Both the position numbers and the translations under genes were made by a program. Positions 2,952-41,803 of a stretch of DNA of 64,000 nucleotides are shown in pieces. The stretch lies in the NCBI RefSeq assembly GCF_054482525.1, contig NZ_CM137006.1. One strand, 5' to 3'. The notes under the pieces were generated by a model, which saw only the letters and a list, made by a program, of their open reading frames with translations, made no database searches and was not told the DNA's origin. The number at the start of each line of letters is the position of its first letter. Positions within the stretch are counted from its first letter, which is position 1.

Positions 2952-4204
2952 ATGCCAGCACCGGCACTGTACGATATAAACATCCGGTACCGGGGATACG
3001 AATGGAATGACGAATACGCCAGAAAAGGGATAACAACCTTCCTCATAATGGTGAAATCATTCGCTATCGGTTACACGGTACGCGATGTCGCCAAAGGCAG
3101 CTGGATCGACGAATCCACGGTCACGCTACCGAAAGCGCCGCCGCTTAACACCCTGCCTCGGGCGACCAAAGTGCCGGAGCCGCAGCCGCCGCAGGAAGAT
3201 TACACCTTTGAAGGTTACCGCAACGCCGACGGCAGCGTGGGCACCAAAAACCTGTTGGGTATTACCACCAGCGTGCACTGCATGGCAGACGTTGAGGACT
3301 ACGTGGTTAAAATTATCGAACGCGACCTGCTGCCGAAATACCTGAGCATCGACGGCGTGGTCGACTTGAACCACCTCTACGGCTGTGGCGTAGCGATTAA
3401 TGTACCGGCCGCCGTGGTGCCAATTCGCACCATCCATAATATTGCGCTGAACCCAAACTTCGGTGGCGAAGTGATGGTGGTGGGCATGCAGTGCGGTGGC
3501 AGCGACGCGTTCTCCGGCGTTACCACTAACCCCGCGCTGTCGGCTACGACTCTGACCTGCTGGTGCGCTGCGGCGCAACGGTGATGTTCTCCGAAGTCAC
3601 TGAAGTACGCGACGCCATTCATCTGTTAACGCCACGCGCCATCAATGAAGAAGTGGGCAGGCGTCTGCTCGAAGAGATGGCCTGATACGATAACTATCCC
3701 GATATGGGCAAAACCGACCGCAGCGCCAACCCTTCGCCGGGCAACAAAAAGGGCGGCCTCGCCAACGTGGTAAAGAAAGCACTCGGCTCCATTGCTAAAT
3801 CGGGTAAAACCGCAATTGTTGAAGTGCTGTCGCCCGGTCAACACCCGACTAAACGCGGATTAATTTACGCCGCGACGCCAGCCAGCGATTTTGTCTGTGG
3901 CACGCAACAGGTGGCTTCGGGTATCACCGTGCAAGTGTTTACGACCGGCCGTGGTACGCCGTACGGCCTGATGGAGGTACCCGTCATTAAAATGGCGACC
4001 CGCACCGGGCTGGCGAACCACTGGTTTGATTTAATGGATATTAACGCAGGCACTATCGCTACCGGCGAAGAAACCATTGAAGAGGTGGGCTGGAAGTTGT
4101 TCCACTTTATTCTCGACGTCGCCAGCGGGAAGAAGAAAACCCTCTCGGATCAATGGGGATTGCATAACCAACTGGCAGTGTTTAACCCGGCACCGGTGGC
4201 CTGA
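2952..4204 (+). pseudogene. UxaA/GarD-family sugar-acid dehydratase (altronate/galactarate dehydratase-like), frameshifted and 5'-truncated
   Basis: Two ORF-track pieces (2952..3584, 3704..4204) and an intervening segment in a third frame together read as one dehydratase homolog; the second piece ends ...[25 protein letters not shown], typical of this family; N-terminal about 50 aa absent. Confidence 0.6.
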
Positions 4205-4266: not shown

Positions 4267-5091
4267 TCACAGCGAAGACGCGAGCTCCCCGACCAGAATC
4301 ACTTCAACCCCAGCCTTTCGCAAGCCTTCCAGACTATCCGCAGGAATGCCTTCATCAACAATGATCATGTCGATACGTTGAGTATCAATGATCTTATGTA
4401 AACTGGAACGATTGAACTTACTGGAATCGGTGACCACGATGATCCGTTCCGCAACTTCGCACATCCGGCGGTTTAAACGGGCTTCATCTTCATTATGCGT
4501 GCTGACGCCGCGCTCCAGATCGATCGCATCTACACCAAGAAACAGCATATCGAAGTGGTAATTTTGCAGCGATTGCTCAGCCTGATCGCCGTAAAAAGAT
4601 TGCGACTGACGGCGCAAATGCCCGCCGGTCATCAGCAGCTCAACGCCTTCCGCTTCCAGCAACGCATTAGCCACGTTCATACCGTTGGTCATCGCAATTA
4701 CGTCAGTGTGCTTGCGCATCAGACGAGCAATCTCAAAAGTGGTGGTCCCGGAATCGAGGAGCACCCGATGACCTGGCTGAATCAACTCAACGGCAGCTTT
4801 CGCAACGCTGCGTTTCATCGCGGTGTTCAGTGCGCTTTTGTCTTCCACTGATGGCTCGACTGACGGCGTCGTGCTATCGCAGATCAACGCGCCACCATAG
4901 GCACGCACAGCGATCCCCTGCTTTTCCAGAAACGCCAGATCGTTGCGGATCGTCACAGTAGATACGCCATACAATGCCGACAGATCGTTAACCTGCACAC
5001 TCCCTTGCTGTCGCAGACGCTGAATGATCTGTTCTCGTCGCTCGCTGGTGCCTGTCACTCGCTTCTCACCTGAAGCGTCGGTATTACTCAT
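4267..5091 (-). CDS. DeoR-family transcriptional regulator
   Basis: 274-aa ORF; N-terminal HTH ([26 protein letters not shown]) and DeoR C-terminal effector domain; divergent from the downstream PTS operon. Confidence 0.7.
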
Positions 5092-8563: not shown

Positions 8564-10453
8564 ATGAAGAAAGTGCTCACTCTCTCACTGCTGGCTCTCT
8601 GCGTTTCTCATGGTGCAGCGGCAGCAAACTACGCGCTCAATAACGACAATATTGCCCTCTTGTTTGATGATACAAACTCAACGGTCGTGGTGAAGGACAA
8701 CAAGGCTAACCATCCGCTCACGCCGCAGGAGTTGTTCTTTCTGACGCTGCCGGATGAGAGTAAAATCCACACCGCGGATTTCAAAATCAAGCACGTCGAA
8801 AAGCAGGATAACGCGATTGTCATCGACTTTACGCACCCGGATTTTAACGTCACGGTGAAGCTGAACCTGGTGAAGGGAAAATACGCCAACATCGGCTACA
8901 CCATTGCCGCCGTGGGGCAGCCGCGCGACGTCGCTAAAATCACCTTCTTCCCGACCCAAAAACAGTCTCAGGCCCCTTACGTAGACGGCGCAATCAATAG
9001 CTCTCCGATCGTTGCGGACTCGTTCTTTATCCTGCCGGATAAACCGATCGTGAATACCTACGCCTATGAAGCCACCACCAATCTCAACGTAGAGCTGAAA
9101 ACGCCGATTCAGCCAGAGGCGCCGGTCAGCTTTACTACCTGGTTCGGCACTTTCCCGGAAACCAGCCAGCTGCGCCGCAGCGTGAACCAGTTTATTAATG
9201 ACGTACGTCCACGCCCATACAAGCCTTATCTGCACTACAACAGCTGGATGGATATCGGCTTTTTCACTCCCTACACTGAACAGGATGTGCTGGGGCGTAT
9301 GGACGAGTGGAACAAGGAGTTCATTACGGGCCGCGGCGTGGCGCTGGACGCCTTCCTGCTGGATGATGGCTGGGACGATCTGACCGGACGCTGGCTATTT
9401 GGCACGGCATTCAGAAACGGTTTTAGCAAAGTACGGGAGAAAGCCGACAGCCTGCACAGCTCCGTTGGGCTATGGCTTTCACCGTGGGGTGGCTACAACA
9501 AACCGCGCGACGTTCGCGTTTCGCATGCAAAAGAGTATGGGTTCGAAACCGTGGACGGCAAACTGGCGCTGTCGGGAGCGAACTACTTTAAAAACTTCAA
9601 TGAGCGGATCATCAAGCTTATCAAAAACGAGCACATCACCTCATTTAAACTCGACGGGATGGGTAACGCCAGTTCGCATATCAAAGGCAGCTCGTTCGCC
9701 TCAGATTTCGATGCATCAATCGCCCTGCTGCACAATATGCGCAGCGCAACCCCGAATCTGTTTATCAACCTGACCACCGGCACCGACGCCAGCCCGTCCT
9801 GGCTGTTCTACGCTGATTCTATCTGGCGTCAGGGAGATGACATTAACCTGTATGGTTCCGGTACGCCGGTGCAGCAGTGGATGACCTACCGCGATGCCGA
9901 GACGTACCGCTCCATTGTCCGTAAAGGCCCTCTGTTCCCGCTGAACTCGCTGATGTACCACGGGATAGTCAGCGCCGAGAATGCCTATTACGGGTTAGAG
10001 AAGGTGCAAACGGACAGCGACTTTGCCGATCAGGTCTGGAGCTACTTCGCGACCGGCACCCAGCTGCAGGAGCTGTATATTACCCCGTCCATGCTGAACA
10101 AGGTGAAGTGGGATACGCTGGCGAAGGCTGCAAAATGGTCGAAGGAAAATGCCAGCGTGCTGGTTGATACCCACTGGATTGGCGGCGACCCAACGGCGCT
10201 TGCCGTGTACGGCTGGGCATCCTGGAGCAAAGACAAAGCCATTCTCGGTTTGCGCAACCCATCGGATAAGCCACAGGCCTACTATCTGGATTTGGCTAAG
10301 GATTTCGAAATACCGACAGGAGACGTGGCGCAGTTTAGTCTGAAAGCGGTATACGGCAGCAATAAAACCGTGCCCGTTGAGTATAAAAACGCGACGGTGA
10401 TTACGTTGCAGCCGCTGGAAACGCTGGTGTTTGAGGCGGTGCCCGTTAACTAA
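8564..10453 (+). CDS. secreted glycoside hydrolase-like protein (alpha-galactosidase-like DDGW motif)
   Basis: Signal peptide MKKVLTLSLLALCVSHGAAAA; LLDDGWDD motif reminiscent of GH27/36-type hydrolases; start alternatively at 8540. Confidence 0.5.
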   Translation: MKKVLTLSLLALCVSHGAAAANYALNNDNIALLFDDTNSTVVVKDNKANHPLTPQELFFLTLPDESKIHTADFKIKHVEKQDNAIVIDFTHPDFNVTVKLNLVKGKYANIGYTIAAVGQPRDVAKITFFPTQKQSQAPYVDGAINSSPIVADSFFILPDKPIVNTYAYEATTNLNVELKTPIQPEAPVSFTTWFGTFPETSQLRRSVNQFINDVRPRPYKPYLHYNSWMDIGFFTPYTEQDVLGRMDEWNKEFITGRGVALDAFLLDDGWDDLTGRWLFGTAFRNGFSKVREKADSLHSSVGLWLSPWGGYNKPRDVRVSHAKEYGFETVDGKLALSGANYFKNFNERIIKLIKNEHITSFKLDGMGNASSHIKGSSFASDFDASIALLHNMRSATPNLFINLTTGTDASPSWLFYADSIWRQGDDINLYGSGTPVQQWMTYRDAETYRSIVRKGPLFPLNSLMYHGIVSAENAYYGLEKVQTDSDFADQVWSYFATGTQLQELYITPSMLNKVKWDTLAKAAKWSKENASVLVDTHWIGGDPTALAVYGWASWSKDKAILGLRNPSDKPQAYYLDLAKDFEIPTGDVAQFSLKAVYGSNKTVPVEYKNATVITLQPLETLVFEAVPVN

Positions 10454-27386: not shown

Positions 27387-27546
27387 ACGCTAATTCCCGT
27401 CACTCTGGTATGCCATCCAGTATGCCATTAGTCTCTCGCTTCACTAAGAATACATTAGATAATATCGGACAACAAAAAGTGTAATACATTGTTTATAATG
27501 AAATTATATAACACCCCTGGATTAAGTCAGATTTATTTCAGGCGGT

Positions 27547-27606
27547 CCCCCTCACCGCCATATTCAAAGAAGAGCTCGTACGAAAGTGCGAGCTTTTTTT
27601 TCGCAT
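27547..27606 (+). repeat. direct repeat copy 1 containing a tRNA 3'-end-like motif (TCCCCCTCACCGCCA) and a terminator-like hairpin plus T-run
   Basis: Near-identical to 27724-27785 (one substitution and one indel); the ...CTCACCGCCA end resembles the acceptor/CCA end of tRNA-Ser. Confidence 0.5.
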
Positions 27607-27723
27607 ATTGCACTCCAGGGGGGATGAGAAGCCCCGACCGGGGTTCGACAACTGGCGCAGCCAGTTGGACAGACCACGAACGCAGTGAGTGGGCTGCCCG
27701 CAGGGCGAGCGAAGCGAGTCAAT

Positions 27724-27785
27724 CCCCCCCCTCACCGCCATATTCAAAGAAGAGCTCGTACGAAAGTACGAGTTTTTTTTCGCAT
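27724..27785 (+). repeat. direct repeat copy 2 containing a tRNA 3'-end-like motif (AATCCCCCCCCTCACCGCCA) and a terminator-like hairpin plus T-run
   Basis: See copy 1; this copy has a longer match to a tRNA-Ser T-arm/acceptor 3' strand, but no complementary 5' acceptor strand (GGTGAGG) exists upstream, so it is not an intact tRNA. Confidence 0.5.
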
Positions 27786-28083
27786 TTTATCTGCCTGTAC
27801 GGCAGTGAACGGTATAAAAATCGAGTTTTTCTTTCGGTTGGCTTTCTAAGCTGCCTGTACGGCAGTGAACTCAAATACTACACGTCTAGCCCGTTGTTAA
27901 TAAAGCAAAACCATCTCATTTTCCTGCTACCACCCTTTTTTATCCTTACCTTCCCGCAGCACTAATTATCAACAACTTACAATCATCATCAAAAAAAGGG
28001 TCTGAACCTCCTCCACCCCATAAATAAAAAGTCCGTAACCTCTTTCGAGATTACGGACTTCACCAACCTACCTAACAATTAGA

Positions 28084-30795: not shown

Positions 30796-30813
30796 ATGAT
30801 AGATAACTATCAT
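30796..30813 (+). repeat. putative attL core (ATGATAGATAACTATCAT), imperfect 18-bp direct repeat of 41786-41803
   Basis: 17/18 identity with the copy next to cspD; itself palindromic (ATGATAG/CTATCAT arms); lies at the left junction of the satellite-like element. Confidence 0.55.
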
Positions 30814-31497: not shown

Positions 31498-31785
31498 TTA
31501 CCGCCGCAGTCGTTCCGGCTTCTTCCACTGGTAAGTATTTTTCGCGCTCTCCCTCCGTTGTTGAGAACGGCGACGGTATGCCAGCAACTCAAGGACTCTG
31601 GTTCGTATGTTGCGCATATCCACGCCGTTAAGCTCAATACCATCACGGCGCATCACCTCAGCAACAACACGCGCGTAATTTTCAGCGGTGACTGTATCCG
31701 GCTGCGCGGCCTGTTCGTCAGCCAACTGGCTGATTCCACCAGCACAGCGGATTAATCGCAGTATTTCAGATTCGGTCATTATCAT
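31498..31785 (-). CDS. hypothetical protein (95 aa), packaging-module associated
   Basis: ORF whose start overlaps the small-terminase gene stop (4-bp overlap); function unknown. Confidence 0.45.
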   Translation of the reverse strand: MIMTESEILRLIRCAGGISQLADEQAAQPDTVTAENYARVVAEVMRRDGIELNGVDMRNIRTRVLELLAYRRRSQQRRESAKNTYQWKKPERLRR

Positions 31786-32270
31786 GCCTGTTTTGCGACC
31801 TCATTCACTACGTCATTTTTTACCATCCGGCTGATAATCTGATTACACAAATCGTCAATAATTGACTGCACTCTGTTTACTGCCATCGGTTTAAGCCCGG
31901 CATCACGTGCCAGAATATTGGGGAGTTTTGCCAGTTCCTCGCTTACGATTTCCCCCCATATAGCCATCTCTTTTCGCACATCATCGGCGGGTATGAGTTG
32001 CGCCGTTTCCTGTTCGAACTTGAGGCGTTCACGTTCGGACTGATACCAGGCCTTACGGTCATGTGGCTCCATTTCTTCCAGTGATGCCGGAACGGGAAGA
32101 TCAAGAAAACAGGTCAGAATGTCAGTCACCCGATAGAGTTTCAGCTTGTCATGCCCTCCGGCTGGCTGGATGTTTTTCAGCCTTGCCGCCGCAGTCTGAC
32201 GACATATTCCCGCTATCGCCGCCAGTTGATTAATGTTCAGCATCAGATTTTTCAGTTCTCGATCCATACC
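31782..32270 (-). CDS. phage terminase small subunit-like protein
   Basis: ORF 31782..32354; likely start at MDRELKNLMLNINQLAAIAGICRQTAAARLKN (HTH typical of TerS/Nu1-like proteins). Confidence 0.55.
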   Translation of the reverse strand, partial: GMDRELKNLMLNINQLAAIAGICRQTAAARLKNIQPAGGHDKLKLYRVTDILTCFLDLPVPASLEEMEPHDRKAWYQSERERLKFEQETAQLIPADDVRKEMAIWGEIVSEELAKLPNILARDAGLKPMAVNRVQSIIDDLCNQIISRMVKNDVVNEVAKQA

Positions 32271-32523
32271 CGCTCCAGAATGTTTTAAACATGCATCTTG
32301 CGAACAACTTTCAGAAGAGGTCAAAAAATGCGCTATATGTTGAGCATAAAACAAGCAAAATTAACATGCCAAAAATAAAAATACTTAAAATTCAATACAA
32401 TATGAAGATGATGATGACGAATGAAAATGCAAAAACTAGCCTTTTTCCGCGCCGCTCCCGCCCCGTGGCAGACCACTCCACCGGGAGGACCCGTAAAAAA
32501 GGCGGCTGTCGCCGCCCTTGTTG

Positions 32524-34437
32524 TCATGCTCCACTCGATTTCAGTAATCCGCGATAATCGAGGGCCGCGACACCTGCATCTATGCGCACTTTCCAGGCGA
32601 CACCATCAACAGTAAAGCCCACCTGCTCCTCAAGATATGGCGTATCCATACCATCAAGATAAGCGACTTCTATTGTGTCCATCCCCTTAGCTGCGGCTAC
32701 ATACCATTCCTTGCTATTGGCCTTATCAAGACGTGGCTCAACAATTACTTCTGCCATATCTTTCACCACGTTAATGATGCCGGGGTTCTGATTGATAGTG
32801 CTCTCATCACCAACCGGAAAGACTGATGACGATGACAGAATGGCGCGACGCGCGGCAGATTCCAGCGCGGCAGGGACCAGAACAAAAGCAGGGGTAATAT
32901 TCAGTGAGTCGCCGTTAGCATCCTCCTGGAGGCGCATCAGCTTACGGGCTTCATCAAGCCCCACCATGTCCATATCCTTCGCAATAAGATTTTTATGATC
33001 GGCATGGAATAACGCTTTACCATCCGTAAATTTGCCGTTGCTGGTTAACAGAAGATAAACCAGATTACCTACTGTTCTGGCGGCCGCACGCCCCATCGCC
33101 ATGGGGATTGTAGTTAACTGGGTCAGGTCATCGTTGATAATGGCCTGACGGGTAACAGAAAAAATATTACCGTATGTGGCCAGCGCAATAGGTACACCTT
33201 TATCGCTGGTGGTGATGTATTTATATTCCGCACCTTCCGGTACTTTATCCAGCTTTGAAAAACCATTCAGACCAACGCGCTTTGCTTCATGAAAGTTTGA
33301 AAGCGATCCGGTACGCGTCCATTTCTGGAACGTTTCGCCGCTGTCCTGCCAGCCTTTCAGCACTGATTTTTCAGCACCACCAGCCAGAATATGAGAAAAA
33401 TCGCTGCTGCTGTGTGTGAAAGCTGCATTAACGACCTGCGAGCGATTTAAAAAACTGCCAACACTGATACCACGATCAGTTAGTGATGCCTGGGCCATTT
33501 CAAAAAGGCTCATCATCGCGTAAGGATTTCCCCGCTCTGGGCGTTCATACCCAAGACGAGAATAAAGCCCCTGACGAATTGCATCGCCTGTTATGTTCCC
33601 GTTACCGGCATAAATATGAGTCGGGATATTTTTATTGGATGGCGTGGACTCGCGCCCCAGCTCGTTCAACAACTTTTCACGGGCCATCTCCGGTGTACAT
33701 GATGCATCCTCCAGGCACGCCATTTTGATCCCGTCGTAACGACTGCCGAACAGGCTAAACACTTCACTTATTCCGTTGATGCGCTTCTGTTCATTACCAG
33801 CAATATTGGCTGCTCCCTGTGGCGGGGTAATCATTCCTTTAATGGTTTCAGGCATGTGTGAAAAATCTCCTGTGCGTTTCGATTCAATTCGCGCCATTGC
33901 TGTGACAGATGGCAACAATTCATCAGCAAAACCGTGCTTAAGGCATTCTTTCCCGTCCATCCAGGTTTCATCTTCCAGCATGGCGGTAATTTCCTGTGCT
34001 GATTTGCCCGTTTTTCTGGCATAAGCAGGGACTAACACGGTTTCCACCTTATCCAGCAAATCAGCATAATCACGCATATCACCAGCATTTCCGCCAGAGA
34101 TACCCCACGGCTTATGTATCATCATCATGGCGTTTTCCGGCATCACAACACGATCGCCAGCCATTGCGACAACCGAAGCCATTGAAGCCGCAACACCATC
34201 GATATAAACCGTAATTTCTGCCGGATGATTCCGTAACAGGTTATAGATGGCGATGCCTTCAAACACGTCACCACCTGGCGAATGGATCCGCAGGTCGATA
34301 TGTGAGACATCGCCCAGGGCTTTCAGGTCTTCCGCAAACTGCTTCGCGGTAATACCGAAGCCGCCAATTTCTTCATAGATGGATATTTCTGCCGCTCCGC
34401 GAACACCCAGCGCCTTAATGGTGTACCAGTGATTCAT
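32524..34437 (-). CDS. fusion of ClpP-like prohead protease and HK97-type major capsid protein
   Basis: 637-aa ORF; N-terminal about 190 aa resemble ClpP/S14-type serine protease (HSPGGDVFEGIAIYN...MASVVAMAGDRVVMPENAMMMIHKPW); the remainder resembles HK97-fold major capsid proteins. Confidence 0.65.
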   Translation of the reverse strand: MNHWYTIKALGVRGAAEISIYEEIGGFGITAKQFAEDLKALGDVSHIDLRIHSPGGDVFEGIAIYNLLRNHPAEITVYIDGVAASMASVVAMAGDRVVMPENAMMMIHKPWGISGGNAGDMRDYADLLDKVETVLVPAYARKTGKSAQEITAMLEDETWMDGKECLKHGFADELLPSVTAMARIESKRTGDFSHMPETIKGMITPPQGAANIAGNEQKRINGISEVFSLFGSRYDGIKMACLEDASCTPEMAREKLLNELGRESTPSNKNIPTHIYAGNGNITGDAIRQGLYSRLGYERPERGNPYAMMSLFEMAQASLTDRGISVGSFLNRSQVVNAAFTHSSSDFSHILAGGAEKSVLKGWQDSGETFQKWTRTGSLSNFHEAKRVGLNGFSKLDKVPEGAEYKYITTSDKGVPIALATYGNIFSVTRQAIINDDLTQLTTIPMAMGRAAARTVGNLVYLLLTSNGKFTDGKALFHADHKNLIAKDMDMVGLDEARKLMRLQEDANGDSLNITPAFVLVPAALESAARRAILSSSSVFPVGDESTINQNPGIINVVKDMAEVIVEPRLDKANSKEWYVAAAKGMDTIEVAYLDGMDTPYLEEQVGFTVDGVAWKVRIDAGVAALDYRGLLKSSGA

Positions 34438-35066: not shown

Positions 35067-35489
35067 TTAAAACGGTATGTTATCCCCGTACGGATCATCA
35101 TTTCCCGCCTGTTGTTTTGCTCTGCTCAGTGCATCAGTAGCCTGCCCCTGTTGGCCTTTTTTGCCGCCCGGTCGCGCCGTTCTCGCACTGATTACGCTGT
35201 CTGCGATAACCTGCCAGCCCTGCCGCGTCTCCCCGTTCTGTCCGGTCCACTGGCTCACCTGCATGTTACCCGCCACGCTCAGGAGTTCACCCTTGCGGTG
35301 CTTTGCCAGTGCTTCGGCCTGTCTGCCAAACGCCAGGACGGATAACCACATCGTCGCCGTTCCGTCATCTGCCTGGCTGCACGGAAGTGGGACCGCCATA
35401 CTCGCCATCGTCATTTGTGTACCCTTGCTGGTGGTCTTTAACTGCGGGTCAGCCACCAGCCGCCCGTAAGCCGCTATCTGTGCTGTCAT
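35067..35489 (-). CDS. ssb: single-stranded DNA-binding protein (SSB-like)
   Basis: 140-aa ORF with OB-fold-like N-terminus, Gly/Gln-rich linker and acidic tail ending DDPYGDNIPF (SSB C-terminal DDDIPF-type motif). Confidence 0.65.
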   Translation of the reverse strand: MTAQIAAYGRLVADPQLKTTSKGTQMTMASMAVPLPCSQADDGTATMWLSVLAFGRQAEALAKHRKGELLSVAGNMQVSQWTGQNGETRQGWQVIADSVISARTARPGGKKGQQGQATDALSRAKQQAGNDDPYGDNIPF

Positions 35490-35731
35490 GCTGTCTGCTC
35501 TCCGGTTTTAACGTTGATGGTTGTCACCTGTTCCGCTTCGGCAATCTCCCGTTCTGTCAGCGTGGCAAAGTTTGCAGCTGCCGTTGTCATGAATGAGCTA
35601 ATCAGTTCGGGATGTGCTTTCGCATATCCTTCCCCGGCGTTGCGGTCGATGATTTTTATCGACACCCTTAACCAGTGTTCCGTCAAATCAAGGGCGTGCG
35701 ATTGTGATTTTTTTGTGTGCTTCGCTGTCAT
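35486..35731 (-). CDS. hypothetical small protein (81 aa)
   Basis: ORF with a 4-bp overlap to ssb; sits between the iteron origin and ssb. Confidence 0.4.
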   Translation of the reverse strand: MTAKHTKKSQSHALDLTEHWLRVSIKIIDRNAGEGYAKAHPELISSFMTTAAANFATLTEREIAEAEQVTTINVKTGEQTA

Positions 35732-35782
35732 AGGCTTTATCTCACAGCAGTAAATTAAAATTTTTGCGTTTTAACCCTTCAC

Positions 35783-36005
35783 CTGTTCACCTTTTGATAT
35801 TTTATCTTTTAATTCATAATGTTAAGGGGTGAACAGTTTCACAAAAACTATTCACCAACTGTTCACCACTGTTCACCCTTGAAGCTCAATAAACAATCAA
35901 AAAGGTGAACAGTGAATAGTTTGGTGAACAGTTCATAAATAACTGTTCACCCTATAACATACTGATACAAAAGATATTTATGACAGGGTGAACAGTGGTG
36001 AACAG
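35783..36005. repeat. iteron cluster, putative replication origin (9 copies of GTGAACAG/CTGTTCAC)
   Basis: 8-mer copies at 35783, 35829, 35859, 35869, 35905, 35924, 35943, 35988, 35998 in both orientations within an AT-rich tract immediately downstream of the primase gene. Confidence 0.6.
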
Positions 36006-36018
36006 TTATTCCATAAGT

Positions 36019-37851
36019 TTAATTTTTGCTATCGTCATTAGTGACCGATACACATGATGGCATCCAGTCTTCTGATTCCTCCGTCAGTGTCACGTTTGAA
36101 CGCAAACCGTGCTTCGTTTTCCGTTTCATATACTCCCTGCCATATTCCGCCATTGCCCCCGGCATATCTTTACCGAAGCGCGTCAGTGTTACAGGTTTAC
36201 CAAACCCATGTGCCCTCATATAAGCCAGATAGGCATGATAGAGATACCTGCGTGGGCTGAATGGCACAATTTCAGCATTACCCACTAACAGGCCATCACA
36301 CATTACCGACGCCATGAGATAGCCGCAGAAGTCCACCAGCGAATCACCTTCACGCTTTATCGCGAGTGCTTCTTCTGATTTCTGCTGCTCATATAAAAGG
36401 CGTCTGGCTTCGTCCTGGTCAGCAAACCGTGTAAGCAGATGGCGAATCACTACCGCCAGCTCACCTTCTATTTTTTCCGCCAGCATTGGATCACGTTCGT
36501 TCTCCGGTACAACTTCCGAAAAATTGAATATCACCCGACGACGTGAGATCCCCCCGCTGCGGTCACTGAATGACATGGCGTTATTGTTAACCGCCAGCAC
36601 TACTGCCGGAATACGCGTTGAGTAGGGGGCTTTGTGTTTCGGGTCAATTGCCACCTTGTCACCGCCTGTAATAGCCTTAATCCCTGCCCCATCACCAGCG
36701 TAGCGGGTCATATCCGGCATGATAATCAGCGAAAAGCCAACCACTAACGCGCGTTCCCTTGCATCTTCCAGCGCCTTCATGCTTGCCGATACTGTGTTGG
36801 CCTTACCCGCCAGCATGGTGCAAATCTCCGCCATCACGCTTTTACCACTTCCCCCTGGACCTGTTACCTCAATGAATAACTGCCAGTCGTACCGGTTCGC
36901 CAGCACCATGAATAATGCAGCCAGTACGCGATCCGCCTTGCGGTCATTCTCAGCCACCGAACGGCGTAACCACTTCCAGAAATTCGGCGCATGTGTTGCC
37001 AGCGTTTCCCCCTCTGCTGGTGGGCTGAAAGGTAATTCACTGGCAATTAACAACCAGTCGTTTTTGTTATGCTCCCGAAAATTACCTGTTCTGGTATCAA
37101 ATACCCCGTTACTGAATCCAATCAGGTTACGGGCTGTATTCCCCATTACAGGCAAACTTAACTTCATGGTATCGACCGCCGATTTAATGGCGTTCTGCGA
37201 ATAGCTGATCTCCGCATCAATGAAAATCTGTGCCATAGCTCGCTGTAATTCTTTATCCTGTACTGGCTCCCATACAACGCCGTTGTAATGGTGAACAGTG
37301 TCAGAGTCAGCATGAATCGCCAGTTCACCGCCATAATGTGCCAGGAGAACTTCGCCGCGTTGACTTGCTCCCATCTGGTTAAGCGCCAGTGATGAAGCGT
37401 TATCGTCTTTTACCCGCTCTTTTTTCTTTACAGGCAGTTCAACTACCTTTTTCTTTTCCGCCAGCTCTGCCCGTTCACGTTCCAGATATTCGCGCCAGTT
37501 CTCCCGTTTCTGGCTGTGCATTCCTTCAGGGTAATAATCAGCATCCCTGACACCTGCCGCTGCCAGTTTCTGCCCGATGGTATTAACAAGCCCCGGACGC
37601 AATAACCCCGCCTGATAGAGACGCACGCGATAGCGTCCGTCCGGTACGATTTGCAGGTTGTCCAGTTCGGCAAGTTGTTGCTCTCCAAGCCAGACAGGTG
37701 GCACGTTATCGCCAGCCAGTCGCCCGTCCTGTTCCTGCCACTGATTCGCATGTGCCCACGCATCACTACCCGCAAAAATGATGACTTCCGTCATTTTGTC
37801 ACGCGGCTGGTGTTTTAAATTTGGCGCTTTTTTCATTTCTGCTCTCTCCAC
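36019..37851 (-). CDS. primase / replication initiator (Pri-Rep-like, P-loop NTPase)
   Basis: 610-aa ORF; P-loop GPGGSGKS; overall resemblance to P4 alpha / PICI Pri-Rep proteins (primase C-terminal plus D5-like NTPase). Confidence 0.7.
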   Translation of the reverse strand: MERAEMKKAPNLKHQPRDKMTEVIIFAGSDAWAHANQWQEQDGRLAGDNVPPVWLGEQQLAELDNLQIVPDGRYRVRLYQAGLLRPGLVNTIGQKLAAAGVRDADYYPEGMHSQKRENWREYLERERAELAEKKKVVELPVKKKERVKDDNASSLALNQMGASQRGEVLLAHYGGELAIHADSDTVHHYNGVVWEPVQDKELQRAMAQIFIDAEISYSQNAIKSAVDTMKLSLPVMGNTARNLIGFSNGVFDTRTGNFREHNKNDWLLIASELPFSPPAEGETLATHAPNFWKWLRRSVAENDRKADRVLAALFMVLANRYDWQLFIEVTGPGGSGKSVMAEICTMLAGKANTVSASMKALEDARERALVVGFSLIIMPDMTRYAGDGAGIKAITGGDKVAIDPKHKAPYSTRIPAVVLAVNNNAMSFSDRSGGISRRRVIFNFSEVVPENERDPMLAEKIEGELAVVIRHLLTRFADQDEARRLLYEQQKSEEALAIKREGDSLVDFCGYLMASVMCDGLLVGNAEIVPFSPRRYLYHAYLAYMRAHGFGKPVTLTRFGKDMPGAMAEYGREYMKRKTKHGLRSNVTLTEESEDWMPSCVSVTNDDSKN

Positions 37852-38459: not shown

Positions 38460-38991
38460 GGCACACCCCCTGGCGAATACGGGCGGCGAATACAGCAACA
38501 CAACCGGACGGGCAGCGGTTACGCGCTTCACGTTCCGTCCAGGCGGTGACGTGGATGATTTGATGGTCTGACGCGCCAAAGATGATAAAGCGCCAGAGAA
38601 AGGCGGTTTGAGAATGTACAAGGGTAGGGATAGTAGCCATGTTGGCAGCCTCCTTTGACAGTGAAGAATTTCCACCGCAGGAAACGCCAATTTCGCTGGC
38701 GGTGGACTGAACGGGGTTGGCGTAACCGGCGTCAAAGGGAACCGGCGCTTCCGAAGAAGCCCCCGCCCAGCCCACCATAACTTTGATGTGAGCGAATGCG
38801 GACGATAAAAAAGACGCTGGCGCGTCATATATCGCCTTTGACATTTCCAGGACGCCAATCCCGGCACCAGATTTTGCTGGTGCGGATAAATCATAGCCCT
38901 GGCTTGCAGTGGCGATCAACTGGTTTTTTACACCCGCTTTATTCAGGTTGTGCGAGTCCCGCCCTTGCGGGTGTGTGGTATGATTTCTCAT
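38452..38991 (-). CDS. hypothetical protein(s); contains an internal SD-preceded start (MATIPTLV... at 38640) that may define a separate 62-aa gene
   Basis: 3' part of ORF 38452..39741; AAGGAGG precedes the ATG at 38640; the N-terminal 250 codons of the 429-aa ORF overlap the operator region and plus-strand genes and are treated as spurious. Confidence 0.3.
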
Positions 38992-39088: not shown

Positions 39089-39140
39089 GTGTTGAACACC
39101 AATGTAAACTCAGGTGTTGAACACGTCAAGTGTTGAACAC
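39089..39140. promoter_or_regulatory. three perfect 11-bp palindromic repeats GTGTTGAACAC (putative operator sites) in a divergent promoter region
   Basis: Copies at 39089-39099, 39114-39124, 39130-39140, between the minus-strand gene block and the plus-strand small gene at 39191. Confidence 0.55.
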
Positions 39141-39190
39141 TTGTTTTTTTTCCTGCATACTGCATTTGTTTTTTGTGAGGGGTACACAAC

Positions 39191-39370
39191 ATGGCGACAA
39201 AAGCAGTAAACGCAAAATCACAAACAGTTGCGGCAAGGGTTCCGCATGAAGTTATGAACAATGTTGAGGCGGTAAAAATGCCTGGTGAAAGTACAGGGCA
39301 ATTTGTAACAGCAGCATTAAAGCGAGAAGTTGAATACCGCCAGCGACGCAAGGCTAAAGAGCAAGAATAA
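39191..39370 (+). CDS. small basic protein (59 aa), putative DNA-binding regulator
   Basis: My translation [59 protein letters not shown]; GAGGGG before the ATG; below the ORF-track size cutoff. Confidence 0.45.
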
Positions 39371-39427
39371 TCACTATCAGCGCTGTGGTGTGAGGTACTC
39401 CGGCGCATTGCTTTACAGGTCGGCACT

Positions 39428-39751: not shown

Positions 39752-39961
39752 TTACGCTGCCTTGCCTGAATTAATGCGATCCCGGCTTTTAACCCATTCC
39801 ATAACCTCGGACAGCAGCCAACCTACAGAACGACCGCCCAGATTACGGCGTGACGGGAAATTCCCTTTTTTCTCCAGTTCATAGCGTGTAGTGCGACACA
39901 CTCCAGTTAACTTACGACATTCATCCTCACGGATTACGCGATCTTCATTTATTTCACGCAT
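39752..39961 (-). CDS. alpA: AlpA-family transcriptional regulator / excisionase-like
   Basis: 69-aa [60 protein letters not shown]; AlpA-type HTH. Confidence 0.65.
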
Positions 39962-40380: not shown

Positions 40381-41619
40381 TCAAGAATTTTGGGTGTAAA
40401 TTCGCGGGGTCATAACAACGATTTTTTTATCATTGTTCTGGAGAAGCTCGAGACGGTCTACCCATAGATTAAGAGCATCACGTTTTGCATCAAGATAACG
40501 GGAGTGGTTATAGACTCGTTGCATCCCCGGCATCTGGTGGGCGGTAAGCTGCTCGACAATATGCGGATCCACGCCTAAATCGTTCAGCATGGTTGTAAAT
40601 GTGTGCCGGATATCGTGTAACGTCCAGGGGGCTTGATTAATTCGTCTGTGCGCTGTTCTTCCGTACTCTGCTACCGAAGATTGTCCTTTCAGTTCACCAA
40701 GCAATAAGCCTGTGTGTCTGTTCTGCTCCACCAGTTGCGTGACGAACGGCAAAATGCTTTCCGGTATTGGCCTGAATATGGCGACCTTCGTTTTGCTGTG
40801 CTCCTTCGGTACTGTCCAGAGCATTTCTTTAAAATCCCACTCCTGCACCTCAGAGCGCCTTAGCTCAGTGGTACGGCATCCAAAAACAATCAGGAGGCGA
40901 ATTAGGGCGCTGTAGTATGGCGGGAATATTTTGTCATCCAGGGCGCGGAGTAATTCCCCAAGCTCCTTATTTGTTAGTACGCGCTCGCTCACTTCTGCTT
41001 TTTTTCCCACATCACCGACAACCATATCATCAAGAACGTTGCTGATTGCGTATCGTCGTTTTCGGCAGTACTTAAGCGCCTGTTTGCATACCTGTAGCAA
41101 AAATCCGGCAGATACTGGGCTTCGCTTTGCCATCTGGTCAAAACATGCCAACCAGTGCCGTAGCTCGCATTTTTCCAACGGCAAAGCGCCAATCTGGCTG
41201 ATTATGTGTTTATTGATCCGGCTTTTCAGTGATTCGTAGTCAGTGCGCTTTTCCTTTGCATACGATTCAAGCCAGTAAGTGAGCGCTTCCTTAACTGTCA
41301 CGGGGGCTAACGCATCCTGTACAGCACGATTAAGCTCATAGCGCGGATTTTTCCCCTCAGCCAGCCAGGCGCGACACTGTGCTGCTTTTTCCCTGGCTGC
41401 TTTCAGGCTCAGATCGGGATAATTGCCCAGTCTCAGACGTTCCGGTGATACCTGCCTACCAGTTCCGGCCCTGTAAGTGAAATACCAGGTTAACAGGCCG
41501 CTGGTGGAATGTCTTACGCTAAGATTGCCACCGTCATTAAAAAAGGCGTTTTTTGTGGTTGGTGATCCGCTTAATTTTCGTAAAAGAGTGTCGCTAAGTC
41601 TATGAATTGCGCTGCTCAT
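40381..41619 (-). CDS. int: tyrosine site-specific integrase
   Basis: 412-aa ORF with phage-integrase catalytic region (...LHDIRHTFTTMLNDLGVDPHIVEQLTAHQMPGMQRVYNHSRYL); adjacent to the right att repeat. Confidence 0.85.
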   Translation of the reverse strand: MSSAIHRLSDTLLRKLSGSPTTKNAFFNDGGNLSVRHSTSGLLTWYFTYRAGTGRQVSPERLRLGNYPDLSLKAAREKAAQCRAWLAEGKNPRYELNRAVQDALAPVTVKEALTYWLESYAKEKRTDYESLKSRINKHIISQIGALPLEKCELRHWLACFDQMAKRSPVSAGFLLQVCKQALKYCRKRRYAISNVLDDMVVGDVGKKAEVSERVLTNKELGELLRALDDKIFPPYYSALIRLLIVFGCRTTELRRSEVQEWDFKEMLWTVPKEHSKTKVAIFRPIPESILPFVTQLVEQNRHTGLLLGELKGQSSVAEYGRTAHRRINQAPWTLHDIRHTFTTMLNDLGVDPHIVEQLTAHQMPGMQRVYNHSRYLDAKRDALNLWVDRLELLQNNDKKIVVMTPRIYTQNS

Positions 41620-41785: not shown

Positions 41786-41803
41786 ATGATAAATAACTAT
41801 CAT
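41786..41803 (+). repeat. putative attR core (ATGATAAATAACTATCAT)
   Basis: 17/18 identical to 30796-30813; lies between the integrase and cspD. Confidence 0.55.

Follow-up and report, generated by a model that had tools for sequence, protein, structure and literature searches.

In the satellite P4, the alpha protein reportedly binds the type 1 repeats and replication is said to require two regions, ori and crr, in cis, with crr acting as a cis-acting helper and not as the initiation site. A different arrangement is found in the iteron plasmids (pSC101, R6K, RK2, F), which carry 17-22-bp direct repeats and DnaA boxes and whose Rep recruits the host DnaB. P4 alpha itself unites primase and SF3 helicase parts with a winged-helix domain at the C-terminus that binds DNA (PMC2777425). 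For the phage-inducible satellites (PICIs) of E. coli, the kind of origin was published in 2018: it lies immediately 3' of pri-rep and consists of two iteron sets around A+T-rich DNA (Fillol-Salom et al. 2018, PMC6092414). The pri-rep gene and ori of EcCICFT073 keep a temperature-sensitive plasmid at the restrictive temperature, an ability that is lost if either is deleted (PMC6092414). The same study lists four Pri-Rep alleles (CFT073, RM13514, O42 and ED1a; Fig. S10), among which the plasmid replication test was made with the CFT073 allele (GGTAGACAG) only, so that this is the only variant experimentally shown to replicate, and it terms the relation between Pri-Rep and alpha distant. In SaPI origins, the iterons come right after rep and flank an A+T-rich centre, the two flanks being oppositely oriented; a winged helix recognises them, and the helicase is self-loading (PMC9371898).

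The repeat array described here lies inside an 11.0-kb island in the clpS-cspD interval of an E. coli chromosome (Table 1), and it very probably serves a phage satellite of the PICI type as the origin of its vegetative replication. The window, i.e. the whole 64-kb stretch of DNA that was analysed, carries the gene annotation of E. coli APEC E16002, which is 100% identical to it over the tested 3.6 kb. Both the att core ATGATAGTTAT and the cspD-clpS site are those of the PICIs EcCIIHE3034 and EcCI18098 (Table S1 of PMC6092414), and because of this match the island is, judged by its sequence, a Gram-negative PICI. Further features of this family are the integrase and alpA genes and a unidirectional operon. 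The main genes of the island are all on the minus strand, where they follow each other in the order integrase, AlpA, Icd-like/ash-like region, DUF4222, Pri-Rep gene, array, 81-aa ORF, SSB, ClpP-protease/major-capsid fusion and DUF1441. The genes sid, delta and psu, which P4 possesses, are absent from the island annotation and from the Pfam matches.

Table 1. Positions in the window of the island features and of the parts of the iteron array.
Feature	Position	Strand	Remark
att core ATGATAGTTAT, 11 bp, clpS side	30803..30813		island boundary repeat
Island-encoded single-stranded DNA-binding protein (SSB)	35067..35489	-	annotation, Pfam, NCBIfam
81-aa hypothetical gene directly after the probable origin	35486..35731	-	position filled in other PICIs too
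Iteron array (probable origin)	35783..36005		9 exact and 2 degenerate GGTGAACAG sites
Distal module	35783..35836		sites 1 + 1: CTGTTCACC, 36-nt spacer (35792-35827), GGTGAACAG; spacer core 84-88% A+T
Central cluster	35848..35931		3 sites (-), 26-nt spacer of ~70% A+T, 3 sites (+)
Gene-proximal module	35943..36005		sites 1 + 2: CTGTTCACC, 35-nt spacer (35952-35986, up to 80% A+T), GGTGAACAGTGGTGAACAG
Pri-Rep ("DNA primase family protein") gene	36019..37836	-	605 aa annotated; ORF extends to 37851
Predicted origin-binding winged-helix domain	36058..36348	-	aa 502-598 of the 610-aa ORF; PDB 1KA8 match, E = 1.8e-24
PICI-specific N-terminal domain	37441..37836	-	Toprim-like predicted fold, no catalytic acidic residues
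AlpA-family regulator	39752..39961	-	annotation and Pfam
Tyrosine integrase	40381..41619	-	annotation and Pfam
att core ATGATAGTTAT, 11 bp, cspD side	41793..41803		island boundary repeat

The packaging module of the island is formed by a ClpP-like protease fused to the major capsid protein (32524-34437, minus strand) and by a DUF1441 protein (31782-32354, minus strand). At this att site EcCIIHE3034 encodes its capsid protein separately, along with a decoration protein and a small terminase, which makes the present island a mosaic variant. In the early region, Rfam detects C4 antisense RNA (82 bits) and isrK (75 bits) above the gathering score at 38695-38896 on the minus strand, and a c4-a1b1 target match falls just under the threshold in the same interval. 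Taken with the adjoining Icd-like and ash-like ORFs, these matches make the early region resemble the antisense-RNA immunity region of P4 and P1. The divergent region between the YlcI/YnfO ORF (39192-39371, plus strand) and the leftward early genes contains three direct copies of the near-palindrome GTGTTGAACAC (39089-39141), and two copies are present at the equivalent place in EcCIIHE3034 (L011, 3400-3451); they may be the binding site of a regulator, possibly AlpA. A CRISPR repeat array is annotated just past clpA in the APEC genome (L001, 144-471; approximately 27543-27870 in the window).

The sequence-only reading had described nine copies of GTGAACAG/CTGTTCAC in both orientations within about 220 bp of AT-rich DNA, directly downstream of a Pri-Rep-like gene, and an exact count bears this out. 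On both strands of the window GTGAACAG is found 11 times, compared to a mean of 1.72 and a maximum of 6 in dinucleotide-preserving shuffles of the window, and nine of these copies fall inside the array, where the chance expectation is ~0.006 per 223 bp. Five are on the plus strand (35829, 35905, 35924, 35988 and 35998) and four on the minus strand (35783, 35859, 35869 and 35943). Read in a common orientation, all nine exact copies contain GGTGAACAG and eight of them GGTGAACAGT; two more copies, GTGAATAG, have one mismatch (35848, minus strand, and 35912, plus strand). The A+T content is 66.6% in the intergenic region (35732-36018) and 72.5% in its part outside the iterons, compared to 51.8% in the whole window. 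Since the Pri-Rep gene is on the minus strand with its stop codon at 36019, and the first iteron lies 13 bp past it, "directly downstream" was correct as well.

The array is built of three units, each consisting of one or more CTGTTCACC sites, a spacer and one or more GGTGAACAG sites, so that the GGTG ends always point toward the spacer. Neighbouring sites on the same strand are spaced 10-11 bp apart. The central cluster forms the centre of a large imperfect dyad (I1 arms 35803-35858 and 35921-35976), and the entire array is a large imperfect palindrome with a predicted single-stranded DNA fold of -49.6 kcal/mol (z = -8). A scan of the array revealed no DnaA box, no GATC site and no perfect IHF site, and no RNA family of Rfam is found in it. 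Could the repeats instead have nothing to do with replication and act as operators for the transcription of ssb and the 81-aa gene? The genes on either side of the array have the same orientation and no terminator is predicted between them, and for this reason initiator binding could modulate read-through. However, no sigma-70-like promoter is predicted in the array region, and arrays of this kind are kept in vB_KppS-Ant and Pmp7, where a different or a convergent gene comes next; transcriptional control alone is thus a very unlikely role. The identical motif in the annotated P4 replication regions also argues against it. A secondary regulatory effect of the array could exist beside its probable function as an origin.

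The product of the adjacent gene has the composition expected of a cognate initiator. According to Pfam, Pri-Rep contains a D5_N domain, an SF3 helicase core (DUF5906) and a C-terminal Pox_D5 winged helix, and its residues 150-600 are 51% identical to residues 320-771 of P4 alpha. The winged helix matches the solved origin-binding domain of P4 alpha (PDB-code: 1KA8). The N-terminal part is different: residues 1-150 have no match in Pfam or NCBIfam, whereas P4 alpha matches both the zinc-ribbon and the Toprim families. The best predicted-fold matches of this domain are DnaG-type primases, but an hhalign comparison with P4 alpha was not significant, and therefore we do not claim homology to the P4 Toprim domain and speak of a resemblance in fold only. 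The neighbour had been called a "primase gene", a name that the protein does not justify, as no primase catalytic domain was detected by Pfam, NCBIfam, fold or residues. From its sequence, Pri-Rep is best described as a helicase-initiator, and the annotation "DNA primase" may be a misnomer because the acidic catalytic residues and the zinc ribbon are missing. In general, the relatives of this protein carry one of three N-terminal domains on a shared helicase-binding module, i.e. zinc ribbon plus Toprim, the PICI domain, or a third domain. The third, an unrelated domain of ~120 aa with the motif ALFSCLYLWVNG, occurs in homologues from Pectobacterium, Serratia and Yersinia (L018, L020, L023 and L029). 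Its presence on the same helicase and binding module indicates that the N-terminus is an exchangeable part.

The comparison of the array with P4 shows that the two share the iteron itself. In the P4 GenBank record TGTTCACC is annotated as "ori type 1 repeat", six times in ori (9310-9413) and ten times in crr (4291-4590), and the core of the window iteron is the same 8-mer. A blastn alignment of the array with the annotated P4 origin has 78.7% identity (E = 4e-6). A module of TGTTCACC, a 34-nt A+T spacer and GGTGAACAG is present once in P4 ori and twice in crr. Of the spacers of the array, the gene-proximal one is similar to the spacer of P4 ori (z = 4.2) and the distal one to those of crr (z = 4.5 and 3.9). 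These likenesses suggest that the array unites an ori-like (proximal) and a crr-like (distal) module of P4, and they are suggestive only, as the sequences are short.

On the other hand, the two replicons are not organized in the same way. In P4, ori and crr are distinct regions separated by 4.5 kb, a terminator stands between the alpha gene and crr, and the alpha protein possesses the zinc ribbon and the Toprim primase domain; the island has a single cluster, and its Pri-Rep lacks both domains. What agrees with a P4-type replicon is the type 1 iteron, the SF3 helicase and the C-terminal origin-binding domain of the P4-alpha type. The sequence-only reading had compared the organisation to that of PICI and P4 origins. 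The PICI layout is present, but the comparison to P4 holds for crr and not for ori, because the region that directly follows the alpha gene is crr according to the GenBank annotation. Having the position of crr right after an alpha-homologue gene, and a distal spacer that resembles the crr spacers, the array could be a crr-like cis-acting replication enhancer only, with the true initiation site elsewhere in the island. We regard this as unlikely, since there is no second iteron cluster elsewhere in the island at up to one mismatch and since the homologous segment of EcCICFT073 together with pri-rep is enough for plasmid replication (PMC6092414). The resemblance of the proximal module to P4 ori itself also speaks for an origin.

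Among described PICIs, the position and layout of the array recur closely. In EcCICFT073 the array begins a few bp past the pri-rep stop codon, its sites are collinear with those of the window in order and orientation, its spacers are A+T-rich, and a small ORF and ssb follow it. The arrays of EcCIIHE3034 and EcCIATCC25922 are collinear as well, and all three read GGTAGACAG/GGTAGATAG. There are differences as well: the iteron core of EcCICFT073 is GGTAGACAG and that of the window GGTGAACAG, the wing of its initiator is TRKVKGVTQTN compared to KRKTKHGLRSN, and its C-terminal binding domain is divergent. Overall, the Pri-Rep proteins of EcCICFT073 and EcCIIHE3034 are 48-49% identical to that of the window, with ~70% identity in the N-terminal domain and the greatest difference in the C-terminal domain. 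The distal spacer of EcCICFT073 is, in addition, G+C-rich. A further relative is EcCIRM13514. Its Pri-Rep, which is the protein accession of our locus L004, is 87% identical to the window protein, and nine GGTGAACA iterons follow the gene; on these two grounds we assign the window allele to the catalogued EcCIRM13514 group. The two islands differ in the att site (yicC-dinD in EcCIRM13514), in accessory and packaging genes and in the origin sequence, which is ~78-80% identical to the window.

More remote systems share the principle. SaPIs have 6-12 short iterons directly after rep, with the same logic (PMC9371898), and PDB entry 7OLA (annotated "DNA primase") matches the helicase core of Pri-Rep (E = 2.7e-10). 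However, the iterons of SaPIs are unrelated and 5-6 nt long, their host is Gram-positive, and no similarity was detected beyond the helicase core. The iteron plasmids resemble the locus in having repeated initiator sites beside A+T-rich DNA; they differ in that the window sites are 9-10 bp long and in both orientations, with no long direct repeats and no DnaA box, and the initiator is itself a helicase. EcCI042, EcCI11368.1 and EcCI11128 were considered as relatives of the origin and set aside, as they have a different initiator (a RepA-family helicase) and other iterons. These PICIs and phage Scapp have iteron arrays of their own just after the replication gene (L093, 6301-6501; L094, 5725-5924; L097, 6620-6820; L010, 3911-4408), with the motifs AAAGTGGGGA, AAAGTGAGG and AAAAGTGCA.

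The 287-bp region is present in 686 of 5426 complete E. coli genomes (~12%). Its apparent occurrence at two places per genome probably arises because the array, being a palindrome, also aligns to its own opposite strand, and we do not take it as a sign that P4 is co-resident. In an alignment of four E. coli versions, which extends down to ~77% identity, 91% of the columns in the iterons and 62% of those in the spacers are invariant (Fisher p = 8e-8). Strain 07_3636 has one CTGTTCACC unit more than its closest relative (L005, ~3124-3150), which indicates that the iteron copy number changes by insertion of units.

A scan with one genome per species yielded 80 loci from Enterobacterales, Gilliamella and Oceanisphaera. 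With few exceptions, the 450 bp past the gene are dominated by a repeated 8-mer. In all, about 90 relatives were compared, and the gene is consistently followed by an iteron array. There are about nine iteron classes (GGTGAACA, GGTGGAGA, CGGACAGT, GTGGACAG, GGTAGACA, GGTAGATA, GGTATACA, GTGTTCAT and GTGTATAG), and the class tracks the segment after the EYGxxY motif of the binding domain, which corresponds to the wing in the winged-helix model. In the GGTGAACA class, P4 included, the wing reads K[RK]xTKxG-[ILVM]R[ST]N. The other classes have replacements or insertions of 1-5 residues in it, with the Oceanisphaera locus (GTGTATAG) as a partial exception. The iteron class cannot be predicted from how similar the binding domains are overall, nor does any one column of the domain set the GGTGAACA class apart from all others; the signal resides in the whole wing segment. 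Such co-variation is the pattern expected if the repeats are binding sites of the winged-helix domain. A lack of conservation in related elements, which the sequence-only reading had named as a point that would count against an origin, is thus not what is seen: the iterons are conserved and change together with the DNA-binding domain of the initiator. The same result bears on the possibility that the repeats are a packaging (cos/pac) or recombination site, for which repeat-rich, A+T-rich DNA is typical too. We consider this highly improbable, given that the att cores are at the island ends, the motif is an iteron of the P4 initiator type and co-varies with the replication protein, and the capsid/terminase module differs among islands that share the origin.

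The assignment as the replication origin of a satellite, which had been put forward as probable, is thus supported by the position directly 3' of pri-rep, by the layout of iteron sets around A+T-rich DNA and by the cognate initiator, all as in Gram-negative PICI origins. By analogy to P4 alpha, to the plasmid test of EcCICFT073 Pri-Rep and to SaPI Rep, we infer the following sequence of binding, melting and self-loading. After induction, the C-terminal winged helix of Pri-Rep, a predicted SF3 helicase-initiator of the D5/P4-alpha type, would bind the 9-10-bp GGTGAACAG(T) sites. As these are arranged in inverted sets with their GGTG ends toward A+T-rich spacers of 26-36 nt, binding would be expected to melt a spacer, on either side of which Pri-Rep would then self-load as a hexameric 3'-5' helicase. 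Host polymerase and primase would finish initiation with the help of the island SSB; a dependence on host priming is suggested because Pri-Rep has no recognisable primase active site.

What does this locus add to the published picture? The kind of origin has been described and the allele group is catalogued. In the literature searched, we did not find reports of the iteron identity and close binding-domain similarity with P4, of the apparent ori-like plus crr-like make-up of a single array, or of the missing primase site of the PICI Pri-Rep. We tentatively propose that this PICI allele shares the DNA specificity of P4 alpha, that its array joins P4-ori-like and P4-crr-like modules, and that the "primase" is a helicase-initiator whose Toprim-like domain is dead and which relies on host DnaG; we hold this combined proposal to be possible rather than probable. 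The shared specificity is argued from the identical iteron and the conserved wing motif. If the proposal is true, a P4-like satellite and this PICI residing in one cell could each fire, titrate or block the origin of the other, and cross-talk between P4 and PICI replicons may be a modest open angle for further work. The paired iteron and wing sequences provide a compact natural table that could guide specificity-swap experiments.

For E. coli, the analysis assigns a probable function to a conspicuous non-coding repeat block that is carried by about one in eight complete genomes, and the array marks the replicon of a mobile element, by which genes are carried from one strain to another. For the satellites, the link to P4 suggests that a replication module is common to two families that have been treated as independent.
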